From the NCBI GenBank assembly GCA_017445475.1, contig JAFSUB010000005.1:20124-84123 (forward strand): a stretch of 64,000 nucleotides of DNA, given 5' to 3'. Positions 52,700 to 60,061 of the stretch are shown here, piece by piece. The notes beneath the pieces were generated by a model. It was given only the letters and a program-made list of their open reading frames with translations, made no database searches and was not told the DNA's origin. The position numbers and the translations under genes were made by a program. Origin of the DNA: Alphaproteobacteria bacterium (GTDB taxonomy: Bacteria; Pseudomonadota; Alphaproteobacteria; RF32; CAG-239). The stretch's first letter is position 1. Each line of letters begins with the position of its first letter.

Positions 52700-53260
52700 A
52701 TGACCATTTTATACATCAATGCCTGCGTGCGTGAAAATTCAAGAACCGAAATTTTGGCGCAACATCTTATCAAAAAACTTCAAAAACCCGTTCAACAAAT
52801 CAATCTGGGACAAATTGCTTTGCTGCCTTTTAATCTTGAACTTTTGCAAAAAAGGAACGCTTTAATCAAAGCGGGCGCGCTTGATGATCCGATGTTTTCT
52901 TATGCGCATCAATTTGCCAACGCCTCTGAAATTGTTATTGCCGCGCCGATGTGGGATTTGTCTTTTCCCGCGCTCTTAAAAACATTTATTGAGCACATCA
53001 ATGTCGGCGGCATCGTGTTCAAATATTCAGGTGAAGGAAAAATTGTGCCGCTTTGCAAGGCCAAAACGCTTTATTACGTTACGACGATGGGCGGACATCA
53101 TCAAACCGATTTCGGATTCGGCTACATCAAAGCTTTGTGCCACACACTTTACGGCATCAAAGATGTTCGGCTCATCAAAGCGGAAGGCCTCAACATTATC
53201 GGCAACGATGTTCCGGCCATCTTAGAAGAAGCCAAAGCACAAATTAACACCATGTTTTAA
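52700..53260 (+). CDS. flavodoxin-like fold NAD(P)H-dependent oxidoreductase
   Basis: MTILYINACVRENSRTEIL N-terminus is typical of FMN-dependent NAD(P)H reductases (Flavodoxin_2 family). Confidence 0.6.
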   Translation: MTILYINACVRENSRTEILAQHLIKKLQKPVQQINLGQIALLPFNLELLQKRNALIKAGALDDPMFSYAHQFANASEIVIAAPMWDLSFPALLKTFIEHINVGGIVFKYSGEGKIVPLCKAKTLYYVTTMGGHHQTDFGFGYIKALCHTLYGIKDVRLIKAEGLNIIGNDVPAILEEAKAQINTMF

Positions 53261-54789
53261 CGCCCAATATCTTTGTGCTTGCCGCTTATGCAGTTTTGCC
53301 TTTTGATTTGCTCCCTGTCAACATAAATCACTTTGCCGCAACATGGGTTAAAATCGTCATTATCGTAAATCAGCCAGATGACATTGAGATTTTTCAAATC
53401 TTGACGCGGCATATCACCATATCCGTCCGTCAAAACAATTTTGTTAACTTTTTTATCTTTTGAAAACGCGCGCACAGCCTTGTCAATATCCGTTCCACCG
53501 CCACCTCGAATACGAAATTCATCAATATCTTTATTGGTCTTAATCTCAACAAAATCAAACACGCGGTGGTCAAACATACCGACTTTGAGCTCTGTTTCTT
53601 TTAATAAGGGTTTTAATTGGCGCAAAAAGTCCTTAAGCATATTGTTATCAACCGAACCGGAAACATCAAGCATCACCTCGGTTGTCGATTTATCCTCTGT
53701 TTCAACATCTTCAATGCGCGCACTGTAATCATTTGCACGCGATGCCCTGCGGTATGACCAGCGCTCTTCCTCTTCTTCAACCGATTTTTTCAAGGCTCGT
53801 TTCCAGTTGACAACTGCCTTAGCCTCGCCGACATCGCCAAACGAATCTCCTTCGTTATCAACCCGTTCTTTTGAAAGTTGTTCTTTGGCACGCTCCAAAG
53901 ATTCGATAATTTTTTTGGCAAGTTCTTCTTTTTCTTTTTTATTTTCTTCTAAAAAGCTCTTTTCTTCAGCATTATAATCAACATCTTCCTCTGGCGTTTC
54001 TTCCTCTTTACCATGAATGCGCCTCATAATTTTATCTAAAAGCGAAGGATTTTCACGGCGCTCTTTTTCTTTTTCAGCCTCTTCAACGGCCTCTTTCCAA
54101 ATCTCATGCGACGAATAGCCTGTTTGAGATTGTGCTCCTTGTTGTTGTCCTTCTTGGCTTTGATCTTGCTCTTGCTGCCCCTCTTGGCCGCCTTGCTGAC
54201 CGTTTTGGCCTTGCTCTTGATTCTGTTCCTGCTGCCCCTCTTGGCCACCTTGCTGACCATCCTGTTGTTGGTTTTGGCCGTCTTGGTTTTGCTGTTGTCC
54301 ATCACCTTGCTGACCGTTTTGGCCTTGCTCTTGATTCTGCTCTTGCTGCCCCTCTTGCTCTTTTTGCTTTTCCTCGCGTTCTTTTAAGAGTTTCTCATAC
54401 ATTTCTTCGGCAGATTTGCCCAAAGCTTCCGGCATATCAACACCGCCTTCAATCATCGGCAGATTTTCCGATTTCAAGATTTGATTAATCACCGAATCTG
54501 TTGCAATGTTCCAAAGCCCTGGCTCTTTATCTTTTGAGCGCATAATATGGTCAAATGCCACATGACAAATCTCGTGCGCAAATAAAAACGTCTGCCTACC
54601 GTCGTCTAAGGTGTGCAAAAATGAAGGCGAATAAATCACTTTTTTGCCGTTTGTGGCAGCCGTACCGATATTGTCATTGGCTTCAAAATCAAGACCGCGC
54701 ACAACAGAGCCCAAACGCGGAAATTTTCGCAAAACCGCATTTTTAATCTCCTGCACTTCTTTTTTTTGTTCCAATGTCAAGGCTGCCAT
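53257..54789 (-). CDS. VWA domain protein with N-terminal putative metallopeptidase (DUF2201-like) region and central Q/E/G-rich repeat
   Basis: HEICHVAFDH (HExxH). DVSGSVDNN MIDAS motif in the C-terminal VWA domain. About 100-aa QEQNQEQGQNGQQGG low-complexity tandem repeat. Confidence 0.7.
   Translation of the reverse strand: MAALTLEQKKEVQEIKNAVLRKFPRLGSVVRGLDFEANDNIGTAATNGKKVIYSPSFLHTLDDGRQTFLFAHEICHVAFDHIMRSKDKEPGLWNIATDSVINQILKSENLPMIEGGVDMPEALGKSAEEMYEKLLKEREEKQKEQEGQQEQNQEQGQNGQQGDGQQQNQDGQNQQQDGQQGGQEGQQEQNQEQGQNGQQGGQEGQQEQDQSQEGQQQGAQSQTGYSSHEIWKEAVEEAEKEKERRENPSLLDKIMRRIHGKEEETPEEDVDYNAEEKSFLEENKKEKEELAKKIIESLERAKEQLSKERVDNEGDSFGDVGEAKAVVNWKRALKKSVEEEEERWSYRRASRANDYSARIEDVETEDKSTTEVMLDVSGSVDNNMLKDFLRQLKPLLKETELKVGMFDHRVFDFVEIKTNKDIDEFRIRGGGGTDIDKAVRAFSKDKKVNKIVLTDGYGDMPRQDLKNLNVIWLIYDNDDFNPCCGKVIYVDREQIKRQNCISGKHKDIGR
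54126..54360. repeat. imperfect tandem DNA repeats encoding the Q/E/G-rich linker of the VWA protein
   Basis: Units such as CCTTGCTGACCGTTTTGGCCTTGCTCTTGATTCTG(T/C)TC(C/T)TGCTGCCCCTCTTG recur at 54196-54247 and 54312-54358, with shorter GNCCNTGCT periodicity throughout. Confidence 0.6.
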
Positions 54790-54798
54790 TTTTGCCTC

Positions 54799-55167
54799 CT
54801 ACAACTTCACACTTAAGCACCACTCTTTGAGCTTCGGATTCAGTTTTTTTACACTTAAAACCGGCACGACAATCTGCACCGTATCCGGCAAATAAGCACC
54901 GCCAAGCCCTCTGTTTTTGAGCAAATTTTCAAATTTGAGTTGTTCGGCCAAATCCAAAGCATCTATTCCATCTAAAACAAGATATTTTTTGCCTTTCAAA
55001 AATTTCAGCCACACATCTTTGGTATAAAGCATACGTTCCTCAACACTGCCTGACATCACATACGCGTCTTCAAAATCCCCGGCTTCGGCACCTTCAATAA
55101 TTAAAGGCCACTTGGCATTGTTTTTTAAAACCTCATCCAGTTTTTCTTTTTGCTTTGAACTAATCAT
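54799..55167 (-). CDS. hypothetical protein (122 aa) between the AAA+ ATPase and VWA genes
   Basis: ORF. Overlaps the ATPase gene stop by 8 nt. Likely co-transcribed. Confidence 0.4.
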   Translation of the reverse strand: MISSKQKEKLDEVLKNNAKWPLIIEGAEAGDFEDAYVMSGSVEERMLYTKDVWLKFLKGKKYLVLDGIDALDLAEQLKFENLLKNRGLGGAYLPDTVQIVVPVLSVKKLNPKLKEWCLSVKL

Positions 55168-56692
55168 TATAACCTCCCTCTCTGGCTTTTAATTGGCTGA
55201 TTTGTATCGCGCGCTCGGCATTACCTTGAACCCATTTAGAATCGAACACTGCAAGATTTTCTTTTCCGAGCTCCGAACCGATAAAATCTCGCACTTTTGA
55301 AACATCTTTTTCACTGACTTGGAGTAAACTTAATGACAGGGCTAATCTTGCATCTGCTTCATACGGAATATCATCTCTGTCGTATGTCCCTTCCAACAAA
55401 TCTTCCAAGCCCATCGGCGGATTGAGAGCAAAATCACTCAAATCCATAGCTAGTTCAGCACCTATTTTATTTGCTATCAGCTCTTGCCTTAAAACGCCGT
55501 CGTTGGCATAAATAACATCGGAGATCATTTCCCACCCGCGCGGCGTTAAAGGCAACTTTTCGGGGTTATTTTCATCAAACGGTTGATGAAAAACTTCCAT
55601 GCCTCTTGAGGCTACATAGGCTGAAATCAACGGATGAACATTCAAACGCTCCGGATTATCCTTGCTTTTTTCGGCGCCCCATTCAAGCCATTCGGCAATA
55701 TTCGGCTCTAAATGTATATGCCCGACCATACGATCAATTAAGGGCGCCGGCATATCATAAGCGGCTGTTGAATCGCTGACCTCATTGCCAGCCAACGCAA
55801 TCACCACATTGTCCGGCAACTTTCCTTTATTCTCGGCAATGGAATGCTCCAGCACAATATGATAAATCAGGCTCTGCACGGTCGGTTTGGCATTTGTAAC
55901 TTCATCGATAAACAACACATGGTTTTTATCGGGCTCTTCTTCACATTTTTTCTTTAAGGAAAGGTACCAATCCGGCGCTTCCCAAACGGCGCCGCCGTCG
56001 TCTTTATAACGCGTCTTACCAACCACATCTTCAGGGAGCATTCCGTTGCATAACGTAATCGGTGTCAAATCAGGATCGATTTGTTTAATACGTGCCGATT
56101 TACCGACACCCGCCGGCCCGTGCAACATAAAGCTTTGCTTGGCTTTAACATAAAACGCTATCTGATCTTTAACGCTCATCTCTTTTTCTTCAACCTTAAC
56201 GCCAAACTTTGCGCGTCGGCGTGCCATTTTTTCTTCCCGTGTCATTTTTGGCGCATCATTTTTTGAAACAACCTCCTCGGGTGCCCTTTGTTCCTGTCTT
56301 TGATATTCGCGGCTCGGCATCATCTGCGCTTCAAGCTCTTGCAGCCGCTGATACATATCCGTTTTTTCGAAATCTCCGTCATAGATTGACTTTCTGTCAA
56401 ATTGCACGCCTGCCAAAATCGCCTGCTTGGAAACCCATGTTCCGCTCCTGTCTTTAAGCCATTCGACAGGCTCAACCTTAACCCAATAGGCTTTGCCTTC
56501 CTCAGGTCTTTCGCCGTTTGATAAAATCGAACCTTCATTGGCCACTTTGGCCTCTATTCTGATATATTTTTCGCCGCCGTATGTGTATTCGGCGCTTGAC
56601 CTTTTTTGATATGGTGTGTCATAATCATTTAATTTTGCCGAATCGAAAGTGTAATTCTTTCCCGTTTTTTTAAGCTGTCCCTGCCGATACAA
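55160..56692 (-). CDS. MoxR-like AAA+ ATPase (AAA_5 family); annotated TTG start. The reading frame stays open upstream into the DGR variable repeat.
   Basis: Walker A GPAGVGKS, Walker B VLFIDEV, sensor ALAGNE, about 190-aa N-terminal region of unknown fold. There is no stop codon in this frame between 56692 and the VR. Confidence 0.75.
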   Translation of the reverse strand: MYRQGQLKKTGKNYTFDSAKLNDYDTPYQKRSSAEYTYGGEKYIRIEAKVANEGSILSNGERPEEGKAYWVKVEPVEWLKDRSGTWVSKQAILAGVQFDRKSIYDGDFEKTDMYQRLQELEAQMMPSREYQRQEQRAPEEVVSKNDAPKMTREEKMARRRAKFGVKVEEKEMSVKDQIAFYVKAKQSFMLHGPAGVGKSARIKQIDPDLTPITLCNGMLPEDVVGKTRYKDDGGAVWEAPDWYLSLKKKCEEEPDKNHVLFIDEVTNAKPTVQSLIYHIVLEHSIAENKGKLPDNVVIALAGNEVSDSTAAYDMPAPLIDRMVGHIHLEPNIAEWLEWGAEKSKDNPERLNVHPLISAYVASRGMEVFHQPFDENNPEKLPLTPRGWEMISDVIYANDGVLRQELIANKIGAELAMDLSDFALNPPMGLEDLLEGTYDRDDIPYEADARLALSLSLLQVSEKDVSKVRDFIGSELGKENLAVFDSKWVQGNAERAIQISQLKAREGGYND

Positions 56693-56820
56693 AGACTCAA
56701 GCGCCTTGCCGTTTGAGGCGATTGTTTGCGGAAACTCGCCCCATAAAACGGTTGGAACACCGTTTACGGGCCGCCCTGCCCTCGCTTCGCTCGGGCTGAT
56801 TTGTGATGTGAAAGATGATG

Positions 56821-57096
56821 TTAAAGCAGGGCGAACCGCCGGCAGCCGGGTGCTGGGACCATGGCGTCCTTGCAGCCGTCGCAGCTAACGGTTCGAACAT
56901 CCCCGTCGCCAGACGCCGAAGCCGACCAAAGATAGCCTGCAGGCTTGCCGTCAGAGGCTTGATAATCTTGATCTTGCCAACCACCCAAAAGAACGGCTAA
57001 ATCTGAAAGCGAAGCTGCGCGCATAGCATCATCTCGCATAATCTCTAAAGCCTTACTGCCCCAAAGTTCTTCTGCTTTTAACAGTGTCATTGCCAT
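56821..57096 (-). CDS. DGR variable (target) protein as currently framed: 91 aa with the VR forming its last 36 codons. Likely the frameshifted 5' part of a larger target gene.
   Basis: GAAGGAGAC RBS 6 nt before ATG 57096. The 3' 109 nt are the VR. The stop TAA abuts the end of TR/VR homology. Confidence 0.7.
   Translation of the reverse strand: MAMTLLKAEELWGSKALEIMRDDAMRAASLSDLAVLLGGWQDQDYQASDGKPAGYLWSASASGDGDVRTVSCDGCKDAMVPAPGCRRFALL
56823..56931 (-). repeat. DGR variable repeat (VR)
   Basis: 109 nt homologous to 58401-58510. All roughly 23 substitutions occur where the TR coding strand has A. One base is missing relative to the TR, also at a TR-A position. The GC-rich 3' end GCCGGCGGTTCGCCCTG is conserved in both (IMH-like). 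Confidence 0.85.
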
Positions 57097-57168
57097 GTCA
57101 AGTCTCCTTCTTTGTTTCCTTATATCCCCAGTTTATCCGCCCTTCTCACTTTTGTCAAGAACTTTTTT

Positions 57169-58365
57169 TCATTTTTTTATTTTTTTCATCTTCCGAAAAG
57201 CCTTTTTCACATACCGCATTTCTTTTGTCCCTTTCAAATGCGCTTCAAAAGCATTTTGCCGAACCCGAAGATATTCATCACCGATAAAACCCTGTTTATA
57301 ATTTTTTTCAATCGCTTTAATGTAATGCCGCTCACGCCTTTTGGCCGAACCCCTGAGATTTTTGATAATTTTACCGCTTGCGCTCATTTTGTGGTTAAAA
57401 CCCAAAAAATCCAATCCGTTTTTTATTTTGCCAATCTGCGTTTTTTGGTTAAGTTCCAGCTTTAAATTTTCAGTGCAAACTTTTCTTATCATCTGAAGAC
57501 AATATTGCAAATAAGCTTTATTCTCGCCGAGCAAAATAAAGTCATCCATATAACGCACGTAATATTTCACTTTGAAACGCTCTTTAACCAACCTGTCAAT
57601 TTCATCTAAATATAAAAGCGCAAACCATTGGCTCGTCTGGTTTCCGAGCGGCAAACCGATATTGCCGTGCGATTTAATCAGCATTTTCATAAAAAGCATA
57701 TCATCTTCATCAAAGCCGCATTTTTTGAGTTTTTGAAGCAATATATCGTGATTGATGTTTTGAAAATATTTTTTGATGTCGCACTTTAAAAAATAAAATT
57801 CATTGCTCCCTATCTTGATGAAAAGCCGCCGCATAAATGTATGCAGCCTTTTTATGGCAAAATCTGTTCCCTTGCCTTTTCTGGAAGCCGCATTGTCATA
57901 AATTAAACGATTCTCTAACTTTGGTTCCAAAACATTTTTGCAAAAACTCATCAACACGACTCGGTCTTTATAAGGCAATGCTTCAATCAGGCGAACTTTA
58001 GGGTCATGAATGTAAAACGAGCGGTATTTGCTCACGCAATATTTGGCAGATTCTAAGGATTGATTGAGTTTAACCAAATTTTGCCCAAGCTCAATTTCAA
58101 ACGAAATTGTTGCGCGTTTATGCTGTTTGCTTTTTCGGCAAAGTTTGTGCGCCTTGTGCAGGCTTTGAAATGTCAAAAAGTCCTCTGTCATCGAAAATAA
58201 AAAAAGAAACATCCGATAATACATCAAAACAAAAGCTTGTGTCAATGTATGTGATGTTTCAAAAACACCGAAGCATTTTTTGTTCTTCCTCGCCTTAAAA
58301 AAAACGAGGAAAAGAAAAAGTTTCCTTTGCTTTCGGCTCGGGCGAATTTTACTTAAAACCCGCAA
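57169..58365 (-). CDS. DGR reverse transcriptase (probable true start near MTEDFL, about 58191)
   Basis: RT motifs including LGNQTSQ (the DGR-specific I/LGxxxSQ) and YMDD. N-terminal alignment to Bordetella phage Brt begins at MTEDFLTFQSLHKAHK. The upstream 58 codons are low-complexity. Confidence 0.9.
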   Translation of the reverse strand: MRVLSKIRPSRKQRKLFLFLVFFKARKNKKCFGVFETSHTLTQAFVLMYYRMFLFLFSMTEDFLTFQSLHKAHKLCRKSKQHKRATISFEIELGQNLVKLNQSLESAKYCVSKYRSFYIHDPKVRLIEALPYKDRVVLMSFCKNVLEPKLENRLIYDNAASRKGKGTDFAIKRLHTFMRRLFIKIGSNEFYFLKCDIKKYFQNINHDILLQKLKKCGFDEDDMLFMKMLIKSHGNIGLPLGNQTSQWFALLYLDEIDRLVKERFKVKYYVRYMDDFILLGENKAYLQYCLQMIRKVCTENLKLELNQKTQIGKIKNGLDFLGFNHKMSASGKIIKNLRGSAKRRERHYIKAIEKNYKQGFIGDEYLRVRQNAFEAHLKGTKEMRYVKKAFRKMKKIKK

Positions 58366-58400
58366 TATCTGGCCTTTGACGCATGGTTGCGCTTAAAAGC

Positions 58401-58510
58401 AAATCAGGGCGAACCGCCGGCTTTCGGTTGTTGGGATTATTGTCGTTCTTGTTGCCGTTTTAGTTAACGGTTTGAACATTTCCGTTGTCATTCGCCGAAG
58501 CCGACCAAAG
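58401..58510 (-). repeat. DGR template repeat (TR)
   Basis: 110 nt. On the minus strand it reads in one frame with 11 AAY codons (AAT/AAC) and is adenine-rich at every position where the VR differs. Located between avd and the RT. Confidence 0.85.
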
Positions 58511-58532
58511 TTCTCTCTTATCAAACTTTTTC

Positions 58533-58976
58533 TCAAACCCGTTGTTTGTTTTCTTTTTGAGCCCACCTTTCATCATCGCTTTTTTTCCACGCCGCAGTCA
58601 GGCCGATGACCTCTGAAACCTGAAGCGCAATTTGTTTATATTGCCTTTCCGTAATACATCCGGCGCCCTGCGCCGTCATTGAAACATAAGAAAGCAACTT
58701 TAACTTAATGAGGGCATTGTGTTGATGATTTTCACGCAAAACTTTATTTTCCGGTGTATCCAGTTTGATAAAATTTGCCCTAAGCAAACTTTCAACCACA
58801 TCCAAACAAAAATTTTGCATGCGATTAACAAAGACACCCCTGAATTTTGCCGGCGATTTCAAAGTTATTGTCATCACGTATTCGCCAAGTTTTTTAGCCT
58901 GCGTGATAACAAACAAATCACTGCCGCCGGCGAAAGATTGCATCTCAAAAACACCGGACTTTTCTGACATACTCAT
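58533..58976 (-). CDS. avd: DGR accessory variability determinant (Avd), four-helix-bundle protein
   Basis: 147 aa. C-terminal ITERQYKQIALQVSEVIGLTAAWKK aligns with the bAvd/TIGR02436 family. Positioned immediately 5' of the TR. Confidence 0.7.
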   Translation of the reverse strand: MSMSEKSGVFEMQSFAGGSDLFVITQAKKLGEYVMTITLKSPAKFRGVFVNRMQNFCLDVVESLLRANFIKLDTPENKVLRENHQHNALIKLKLLSYVSMTAQGAGCITERQYKQIALQVSEVIGLTAAWKKSDDERWAQKENKQRV

Positions 58977-60061
58977 TTGCTTTTGACTCTCAGAGCCGTT
59001 TCCATCACTTTTTGCGCAAGATTGCGGTTATTTGTCATCTTCAAATCGGCTTTTTGCATTGCGGTTTCGTAAATTTTTCGATTGTCAAAAACCTTGTCAA
59101 TCACCCTTAAAAACTGCGCCGAATCGGTTAAATCCTCGTCTTTGATGATTTCGCAAAAACCCTTGGCGGCAAAAGATTTTGCATTCAAACCCTGCTCACC
59201 TCGGCTTGAACTTGACGGCAGAGGCACCAAAACCATCGGTTTTTTGAGACTCAACAACTCAAAAATGGCGTTTGATCCCGCACGCGACACCACAACATCG
59301 GCCGCTTCCATTAAATCTTTAAATTCCGTATCGACATAGTCAAACTGCTTATATCCTTTTGCCTTAACGCTTTCGTCGGTTTGACCGCGCCCGCAGATGT
59401 GTATCAGCTGATATTTTTTTGTAAGTGCCTCTAAATTTGAACGCACTGCCTCGTTTAAGGTTTTTGCGCCAAGCGAACCGCCGACAAACATCAATACCGG
59501 CTTGTTTTCATCAAAGCCGCACAAACCGCAGCCCCTCTTTTTGTCGCCGCCCTCGAATCTGTCCGACAGAACGGGGCCGATATAATCTACTTTTTTCTTG
59601 TTTTTCACATATTTAATCGTGTCGTCAAAGGTTGTGAAAAACCGGCTCACAAACGGCAACGACATCTTATTTGCAAGGCCGGGGGTAACGTCCGATTCGT
59701 GCATAACCGACTTAACGCCGCAAACAAAGCCCGCCAACACCACCGGAAACGACACAAACCCGCCTTTTGAAAAAATGATGTCCGGCTTTTCTTTGAGCAC
59801 AATACAAACCGCCTGCACAACACCAACCGGAATTTTGAGCATATCCAAAAAATTCTGCCACGAAAAATAGCGCCTGAGCTTGCCGGTTTGAATGGCGTGA
59901 TATTGAACCTTGTCGAACTTTTTGATTAAATCGCGTTCAATGCCCGTTTTTGAACCGACATACGAAACCTTCCAGCCTTTTTGCAAAAAAAACGGAATAA
60001 GCGCCAAATTGAGCGTTACGTGCCCTGCACTGCCACCGCCCGTAAAGATAATTTTATTCAT
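58973..60061 (-). CDS. murG: MurG-family GT28 glycosyltransferase (UDP-GlcNAc transferase)
   Basis: FTGGGSAGHV, VGGSLGAKTLN, ADVVVSRAGSNAIFELL...VLVPLP align to MurG motifs. Not in a dcw cluster. Confidence 0.6.
   Translation of the reverse strand: MNKIIFTGGGSAGHVTLNLALIPFFLQKGWKVSYVGSKTGIERDLIKKFDKVQYHAIQTGKLRRYFSWQNFLDMLKIPVGVVQAVCIVLKEKPDIIFSKGGFVSFPVVLAGFVCGVKSVMHESDVTPGLANKMSLPFVSRFFTTFDDTIKYVKNKKKVDYIGPVLSDRFEGGDKKRGCGLCGFDENKPVLMFVGGSLGAKTLNEAVRSNLEALTKKYQLIHICGRGQTDESVKAKGYKQFDYVDTEFKDLMEAADVVVSRAGSNAIFELLSLKKPMVLVPLPSSSSRGEQGLNAKSFAAKGFCEIIKDEDLTDSAQFLRVIDKVFDNRKIYETAMQKADLKMTNNRNLAQKVMETALRVKSK

Follow-up and report, generated by a model that had tools for sequence, protein, structure and literature searches.

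The prototype diversity-generating retroelement (DGR) of Bordetella phage BPP-1 consists of avd, a template repeat (TR) and the reverse transcriptase (RT) gene brt, which act on mtd; its variable repeat (VR) lies at the C-terminus of the C-type lectin domain of a tail fiber. In large DGR surveys, variable regions were found at target C-termini and the C-type lectin fold was near-universal, and one survey explained C-terminal VRs by the need for homing signals outside the coding sequence (PMC8144416). A VR near the 5' end of its target has been called rare (PMC10743442). Beyond phages, DGR-diversified sensors were described in multicellular cyanobacteria and in Thiohalocapsa, where they form part of MoxR/vWA/VMAP ternary conflict systems (Kaur et al. 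2020, PMC7159879; Dore et al. 2024, PMC10907252). Here, we analyzed a 64,000-nucleotide stretch (the window) of an Alphaproteobacteria bacterium genome, contig JAFSUB010000005.1, positions 20,124 to 84,123. With considerable confidence, we read it as containing a chromosomal DGR, composed of avd, a TR with its spacer RNA and an RT, that rewrites 110 nt near the 5' end of a downstream gene for a MoxR ATPase. Already known are the canonical DGR mechanism and the theme of DGRs linked with MoxR/vWA proteins. Distinct from what is known are the position of the VR domain, N-terminal on the ATPase itself, homing signals inside coding sequence and frequent null alleles.

The window element resembles the BPP-1 DGR in its cassette of Avd, TR and RT, in adenine-specific differences between the repeats, in a GC-rich 3' end shared by TR and VR, in a hairpin just past the VR and in a structured spacer RNA after the TR. 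In contrast to the phage-borne prototype, it is chromosomal, its target lies downstream of the RT, and its VR is found near the N-terminus of an ATPase instead of at the C-terminus of a lectin domain. Moreover, its cis elements lie within coding sequence, and its TR carries stop-capable codons as well as an in-frame TAA.

All genes of the element are on the minus strand. A repeat search recovered TR (58510..58401, 110 nt with 36 adenines, possibly beginning 2 nt further 5' at 58512) and VR (56931..56823, 109 nt) as two blocks with unequal offsets of 1578 and 1579 nt, and the copies hence differ in length. Aligned with one gap, they show 23 substitutions and one deleted base. All 24 differences sit at TR adenines, and none of the 74 non-adenine TR positions is altered in the VR. 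The substitution spectrum comprises A>G (14), A>C (6) and A>T (3), and the hypergeometric P for 23 of 23 substitutions on adenines is 3.6e-15. An earlier note on this DNA had described two repeats of about 110 nt with about 23 differences, every one at a TR adenine. Our tabulation bears out the adenine rule and the 23 substitutions, but the copies are not co-linear: the note had overlooked a 24th difference, a TR adenine deleted in the VR, for which three equally good placements, all adenines, exist at 56861..56865. It was right in counting 11 in-frame AAY codons in the TR. The TR also has two AAG codons, in which adenine changes can yield stops, and one in-frame TAA that had gone unmentioned and because of which an unmutated TR copy would truncate the target. 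Both repeats contain, as had been stated, a shared 17-nt GC-rich 3' end, GCCGGCGGTTCGCCCTG (TR 58421..58405, VR 56843..56827), which resembles an initiation of mutagenic homing (IMH) element. A search of the window found no second VR for this TR.

The proteins of the cassette agree with this picture. Avd (accessory variability determinant; 58533..58976, 147 aa) matches phrog_3206 of PHROGs, annotated as 'Avd protein of DGR' (E 1.8e-16), and hits NF033474 (9e-6) and PF22296, bAvd (1.5e-4), weakly and below their cut-offs. A sequence comparison with solved structures, the solved bAvd included, gave no useful match; across related cassettes Avd is 50-68% identical and found at the same location. 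The RT (57169..58191, 340 aa) carries the motifs LGNQTSQ and YMDD; its open reading frame (ORF) extends upstream to a TTG at 58365, and its homologs begin at ATG 58191. It matches RVT_1 (7e-20) and phrog_1423 (5.5e-91). Its best solved relative, 8ub7_A (E 1.7e-33), is 100% identical to the brt product of phage BPP-1 (bRT), and the next one is a group II maturase (1.3e-12). Identity is 35-40% to RTs of phage nd12 (39%) and of Faecalibacterium phages; nd12 and Lelie have been described as DGR phages (PMC10743442, PMC11792537). NCBIfam returned group II, Drt and retron models only, all far below cut-off, which says nothing against a DGR because NCBIfam holds no DGR RT model. Likewise, PADLOC, which is without a DGR-specific RT model, gave generic RT matches alone, below cut-off. 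Judged by these relationships, the RT belongs to the DGR clade rather than to group II introns or retrons. The TR lies between the Avd-like ORF (58976..58533) and the RT, just where the earlier note had placed it. Its view of a complete chromosomal DGR with avd, TR, RT and target also stands, given the adenine-only mismatches, bRT as best relative, flanks free of phage genes, and the profile searches it had suggested for RT and Avd, which led to phrog_1423 and phrog_3206. From its sequence, the element is thus a genuine chromosomal DGR.

The target is larger than it first seems. The public record calls the ORF 57096..56821 as a gene of 91 codons, and 56692..55160, with a TTG start at 56692, as a 510-aa 'AAA family ATPase'. 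The 91-codon ORF ends in ...KDAMVPAPGCRRFALL followed by a TAA (56823..56821) that serves as a codon in the shifted frame alone. Read in frame with the upstream VR part, the TR ends ...NNRKPAVRPDL. After the deletion, the VR reads ...GPSTRLPAVRPALTSSFTSQISPSEAR... (...PAVRPALTSS...) in the TR frame, which stays open past the TTG at 56692 to 55160. Hence, since an adenine position was deleted in the VR, the gene is split into a 5' fragment, of which residues 1-78 are genuine and the last 13 plus the stop are out of frame, and an out-of-frame remainder (55160..56862) encoding a second beta-rich domain, a linker, a MoxR-type AAA+ domain and a C-terminal helical domain. Restoring one base gives a protein of 645 residues. 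With this repaired protein, a homolog search found dozens of proteins of 640-660 aa at 98-100% cover and 45-51% identity (P0003-P0060), together with an identical 510-residue entry, 'MAG: AAA family ATPase [Alphaproteobacteria bacterium]'. In the homolog alignment, the N-terminus is conserved (...TDLAV.LGG...WSAS....VR.V...G.........R..A.RPALPPSETSKI...) except for a hypervariable stretch that coincides with the VR, and the conserved A.RPALPPSETSKI motif can be read in the window in the TR frame only.

On this alignment, the VR encodes residues ~55-92 of a large MoxR-like ATPase. The earlier note had taken the target for a small protein with a C-terminal VR ending exactly at the stop codon. 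The stop, however, stands at the VR end only because the 1-nt deletion shifts the frame, and the target is the N-terminal domain of an ATPase of ~645 aa. The coordinates given before must accordingly be extended, for the feature reaches at least 55160 and the functional module 53257. The target is hidden in the public annotation of such genomes, where the two parts of the gene appear as a 'hypothetical protein' and an 'AAA family ATPase'.

Residues 323-457 of the target match AAA_5 and AAA_3, with GPAGVGKS as Walker A and VLFIDE as Walker B, which assigns the predicted AAA+ domain to the MoxR/dynein/midasin group. Inspected by eye, the N-terminus has no signal-peptide-like and no hydrophobic or membrane segment, and the protein is putatively cytoplasmic. 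Two genes downstream of the ATPase gene lies that of a 510-aa partner protein (53257..54789, minus strand), which combines DUF2201_N (HExxH metallopeptidase-like; PF13203, 2.6e-23), a linker of Q/G/E-rich repeats and a VWA-like DUF2201 domain (PF09967, 1.1e-14). In between, a conserved small gene (54799..55167, minus strand) encodes 122 aa without a match in Pfam, NCBIfam, PADLOC or PHROGs. Almost every related locus shows this order of ATPase, small gene and metallopeptidase-VWA gene. The PHROGs matches are phrog_1297 for the ATPase and phrog_1314 for the peptidase-VWA protein, and Foldseek gave matches to phage dynein-related AAA proteins. In other members of the same AAA+ family, the VR domain is replaced by other N-termini, namely BspA-type leucine-rich repeats (LRR_5), ankyrin, a full DUF6273 match or a duplicated AAA region (P0086, P0089-P0091, P0002, P0085/P0092/P0113). 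This suggests that the family may combine one ATPase core with interchangeable N-terminal recognition modules.

Of the described systems, the ternary conflict systems share with this module a DGR-varied binding domain in a cluster of MoxR ATPase and vWA/peptidase proteins, for which a sensor function has been proposed. There, however, the VR lies in the C-terminal FGS/C-type lectin domain of the vWA protein or of a STAND NTPase, whereas in the window it lies in a small N-terminal domain of the MoxR protein. Furthermore, the vWA partner in the window belongs to the DUF2201 type, carries an HExxH domain at its N-terminus and, unlike its ternary-system counterparts, has no variable lectin domain. 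We recognized no VMAP protein in the window module, a search that did not include a dedicated VMAP profile. The hosts differ too, being multicellular for the ternary systems and, for the window family, gut or rumen Alphaproteobacteria, Clostridia and Bacilli represented by metagenome-assembled genomes (MAGs). The link between DGRs and MoxR/vWA proteins thereby extends from multicellular cyanobacteria and purple sulfur bacteria to gut and rumen Alphaproteobacteria and Bacillota. The two-gene core of phrog_1297 and phrog_1314 also resembles the pair of MoxR and metallopeptidase-vWA proteins of group 2.2 jumbo phages; in the parts of that report available to us, the pair is described with no mention of a DGR or a variable N-terminal domain (PMC7824862). 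In the literature within reach of our search, we found no DGR acting on an AAA+/MoxR ATPase itself or linked to DUF2201, which is weak evidence of absence as most subscription journals lay outside that search.

A VR near the target 5' end is a feature shared with the tentaclins of phages nd4/nd12 (PMC10743442) and with targets in Faecalibacterium prophages (PMC11792537). The nd12 RT is, moreover, among the best phage matches of the window RT, and distant ATPases of the window family match DUF6273 N-terminally. DUF6273 is a C-type-lectin-like domain and a DGR target in gut phages (PMC10743442, PMC11792537). Tentaclin-type targets, however, are virion receptor-binding proteins with immunoglobulin-like domains, whereas the window domain is fused to a chromosomal AAA+ ATPase; and unlike the N-terminal DUF6273 of tentaclins, the window VR domain does not reach the DUF6273 model. 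Neither do 23 close relatives, whereas the distant family members P0085, P0092 and P0113 match it (PF19789, positions 52-171/172) above cut-off at the equivalent N-terminal position. With hhalign, the N-terminal alignment matched P0092 weakly (E 7e-4, probability 26%) in the expected register, and P0113 gave nothing. Modeled in isolation, the VR domain gave a poor model and no structural neighbor. In the full-length model of P0003, the closest full-length homolog, the VR-bearing domain is predicted with confidence and lies packed on the second beta-rich one.

Since the VR is N-terminal, the predicted homing signals come to lie within coding sequence. In the window, the GC-rich VR end GCCGGCGGTTCGCCCTG is followed by a C where the TR has an A, and this difference, GATTT in the TR versus GCTTT in the VR, is fixed in 21 of 21 loci (the window and 20 relatives, see below). 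The repeats end ...GATTTGC (TR) and ...GCTTTGC (VR) across loci, while the window match stops after TTT. The fixed VR base falls on codon position two of the Ala in an invariant RPAL motif. By analogy, the A/C difference may be regarded as behaving like the IMH/IMH* distinction of the prototype. Further downstream, 26 nt past the VR and again within coding sequence, a 19-nt hairpin, GCCCGAGCGAAGCGAGGGC (56796..56778, minus strand), is the probable target-recognition element. It is found 25-30 nt past the VR across loci, and in it tandem G·A/A·G mismatches separate a 4-bp stem from a 2-bp stem with a 3-nt loop. Its stems covary (GCCC/GGGC, GGTC/GACC, GTCC/GGAC, ACCC/GGGT, CCCC/GGGG), with G-C or A-T as inner pair. 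It is perfect in 19 of the 21 DGR-bearing loci, with one mismatch in the other two, and perfect in 12 of 30 homologous loci without a recognizable adjacent TR/VR (Fisher p = 3.6e-4, uncorrected for shared ancestry). Both the GC-rich end and the hairpin form part of codons (...RPALPPSETSKISPSEAR...), and the predicted homing signals are encoded within ...SKISPSEAR.... By its position, the window VR thus departs from the surveyed pattern of a C-terminal VR within a C-type lectin fold. The family is hence a widespread counter-example to the rule of C-terminal VRs and a natural test of what homing signals require.

A scan of GTDB representative genomes yielded 80 loci of this family, mostly in gut or rumen MAGs of Alphaproteobacteria, Clostridia, Bacilli or Tenericutes. 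In twenty of them, avd and RT lie immediately upstream and are separated by a TR, and in many others the module stands without a nearby DGR. In the 20 loci, the VR covers residues 53-92, or 68-100 in Bacilli-type loci, and TR and VR differ by 9-25 adenine substitutions and 0-4 others. One relative at ~50% protein identity was found in three samples (L088-L090) with an identical TR yet three different VRs, which is direct evidence for activity of cassettes of the window family in nature. As side observations, 2-nt VR insertions off TR adenines occur in two relatives (L017, L091/L092, L020), one being TT and one two separate G. L017 also shows an excess of A>T and four non-adenine substitutions, a pattern unlike that of the window.

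Because the VR is N-terminal, every stop or frameshift in it creates a null allele, and such alleles are frequent. The VR is disrupted in 7 of the 21 representative loci by stops at stop-capable TR codons, by 2-nt insertions or by the window deletion. In L088-L090, each VR is broken in a different way, one of them through loss of a single nucleotide at another TR adenine. Among the gene calls in the 90%-identity clusters of two relatives, many are truncated at the N-terminus, with 549 or 558 residues compared with ~650. Besides AAY, each TR in the family has AAA, AAG or AGA codons. Adenine changes can convert these to stops, which partly explains the breakage. An in-frame TAA is present in four TRs including that of the window, not all at one codon position (L005, L007, L008, L088-L090). 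With a third of the representative loci broken, each of them a null allele, the family can show whether DGRs also act as on/off switches.

How the module might work can be sketched as follows. The variable domain would be a ligand- or substrate-recognition module that binds changing partners, most plausibly proteins of phages or other invaders. Binding could be coupled to ATP-driven remodeling and to proteolysis by the VWA-metallopeptidase partner, as has been proposed for MoxR/vWA conflict systems linked to DGRs. We infer such a role in conflict from these published proposals (PMC7159879, PMC10907252), from a gene that is dispensable and patchily distributed, and from family members that swap the N-terminus for LRR_5, ankyrin or DUF6273. 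The window deletion is most likely genuine, with mutagenic homing as its most likely source. Having arisen in this way, it would be repaired in frame by a further homing event.

Tentatively, and with more doubt than conviction, we may carry this further and speculate that the module stands for an undescribed class of DGR-programmed cytoplasmic machines, in which MoxR and metallopeptidase-VWA proteins form an adaptive sensor/protease that its retroelement switches on and off. Its N-terminal recognition domain would be continually rewritten against changing intracellular targets, for example phage proteins. The N-terminal VR together with stop-capable and TAA codons would let the retroelement switch the system off and then on again. 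Null alleles would accordingly represent a built-in phase variation, reversible by the next homing, rather than decay.

Several points weigh against our reading of the locus as a working DGR with a recognition module as its target. The defense or sensor role is drawn by analogy, and the published proposals behind it are themselves untested. PADLOC has no defense-system model that matches the ATPase, the small protein or the VWA protein. A chaperone role was proposed for phage pairs of MoxR and peptidase-vWA proteins (PMC7824862). The tie of the VR domain to DUF6273 is indirect. The three assemblies that contain the deletion all appear to come from one sample. Finally, decay is possible, as the TR has an in-frame TAA and the spacer is ~50 nt shorter than that of relatives.

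The module could be a housekeeping or assembly chaperone of the MoxR-VWA type, with the DGR diversifying a substrate adaptor for changing endogenous or environmental clients. The MoxR-VWA pairs CbbQ/CbbO and NorQ/NorD are maturation chaperones and at the same time the closest structures, the jumbo phage pair was proposed to serve virion assembly (PMC7824862), and the lack of a PADLOC match fits as well. For a fixed client, however, a hypervariable binding surface would have no evident use. Null alleles are common, from which it follows that the target gene is dispensable, N-termini are swapped within the family for LRR, ankyrin or DUF6273 modules, and the module is patchy among close relatives, with a resolvase gene nearby in some loci. 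We hence think a chaperone unlikely and prefer recognition of changing partners.

Whether the deletion exists in the cells bears on the state of the target. It might be a sequencing or assembly artifact of a heterogeneous VR, the target being intact and the DGR fully functional in cells. The window stems from a MAG, VR sequences vary within populations, and assembling a consensus from such regions is prone to error; that all three assemblies apparently derive from one sample adds to this. In contrast, the ENA and Logan assemblies are identical to the NCBI window over the whole region, deletion included, and the deletion is therefore not the slip of one assembler. Disrupted VRs also recur with differing causes and in several independent samples. 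An artifact thus appears about as improbable as a chaperone, and we keep to a deletion made during homing.

Less probable still is that the cassette is a decaying relic that performs no homing now, with a pseudogene as target and an adenine pattern left by past activity. This would agree with the frameshifted target, with the TAA in the TR and with a first spacer hairpin that is much smaller than in relatives. The avd and RT ORFs, however, are intact, the catalytic YMDD is kept, and spacer box, terminal hairpin, GC-rich end and target hairpin are all preserved. Moreover, not one of the 74 non-adenine positions differs between TR and VR, which argues for a recent homing event, and TAA-bearing TRs also occur in relatives, one of which demonstrably varies between samples. 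A functional cassette with a currently interrupted target hence remains our preferred reading. That the target is a separate protein of 91 residues with the VR at its C-terminus and an unrelated ATPase as neighbor is highly improbable, for although the ORF 57096..56821 exists with that stop and is called as a gene publicly, TR and VR are unequal by one base, the tail CRRFALL before the stop has no counterpart in any homolog, the TR frame yields the family-invariant RPAL and continues into the ATPase, dozens of relatives are single proteins of ~650 aa, and the fusion is intact in 14 related DGR loci with the VR at equal residues.

The DGR RNA has a conserved, structured spacer of 209 nt between TR and RT start (58192..58400, minus strand). 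RNAalifold on 10 loci predicted 52 base pairs, 29 of them with compensatory changes. The single-sequence fold of the window spacer has a z of -3.67 and is more stable than 100 of 100 shuffles. An invariant spacer box, AAAGCAAAGGAA (AAAGCAAA, 58333..58322), is predicted to pair with the TR 3' end TTTGCTTT (58395-58403) in 10 of 10 loci. By analogy with the prototype DGR RNA, this pairing may determine where reverse transcription begins. A long, conserved hairpin with a U-run (58260..58206, minus strand) lies shortly before the RT start codon; it covaries across the ten loci and looks like a putative terminator for the TR-containing RNA. Its arms contain a sigma-70-like promoter that matches the consensus at 11 of 12 positions (-35 TTGACA at 58245, 18 nt spacing, -10 TATTAT at 58221). 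Transcripts from this embedded promoter would lack the 5' arm of the hairpin and would thus read through into RT and target. Rfam gave nothing relevant, either for the whole window at gathering thresholds or for 56600-59100 at permissive thresholds.

As to mobility, a tblastn search of phage genomes with the N-terminal 261 residues gave no match, and a scan of IMG/VR viral contigs for the family found one weak, AAA-only match. The ATPase family is, on these comparisons, not typically phage-borne. Within the family, L088-L090 have a serine resolvase gene (positions ~20-780) immediately upstream of the DGR cassette, and in L002/L003 the DGR-less module is found among phage-like genes (Mu F-like protein, lysozyme). 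These hint that module or cassette moves between genomes.

In the window, the neighbors on one side are MurG, RmuC and TyrS, and on the other a flavodoxin-like protein, squalene/phytoene synthase and TrmFO. No phage genes were seen among the flanking genes, and a prophage context was ruled out by these housekeeping neighbors and the unremarkable composition of the window. The Gln/Gly/Glu-rich linker of the partner protein is encoded by four tandem 57-nt units (54134-54383) that are 61-82% identical to the reference copy, and its length may vary, with partner homologs ranging from 476 to 615 residues. At the other end, the avd start codon shares bases with the stop codon of the murG-like gene before it (ATGA, 58973-58976). 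The cassette thus directly abuts a gene for cell-wall synthesis, and the two may be transcribed together.

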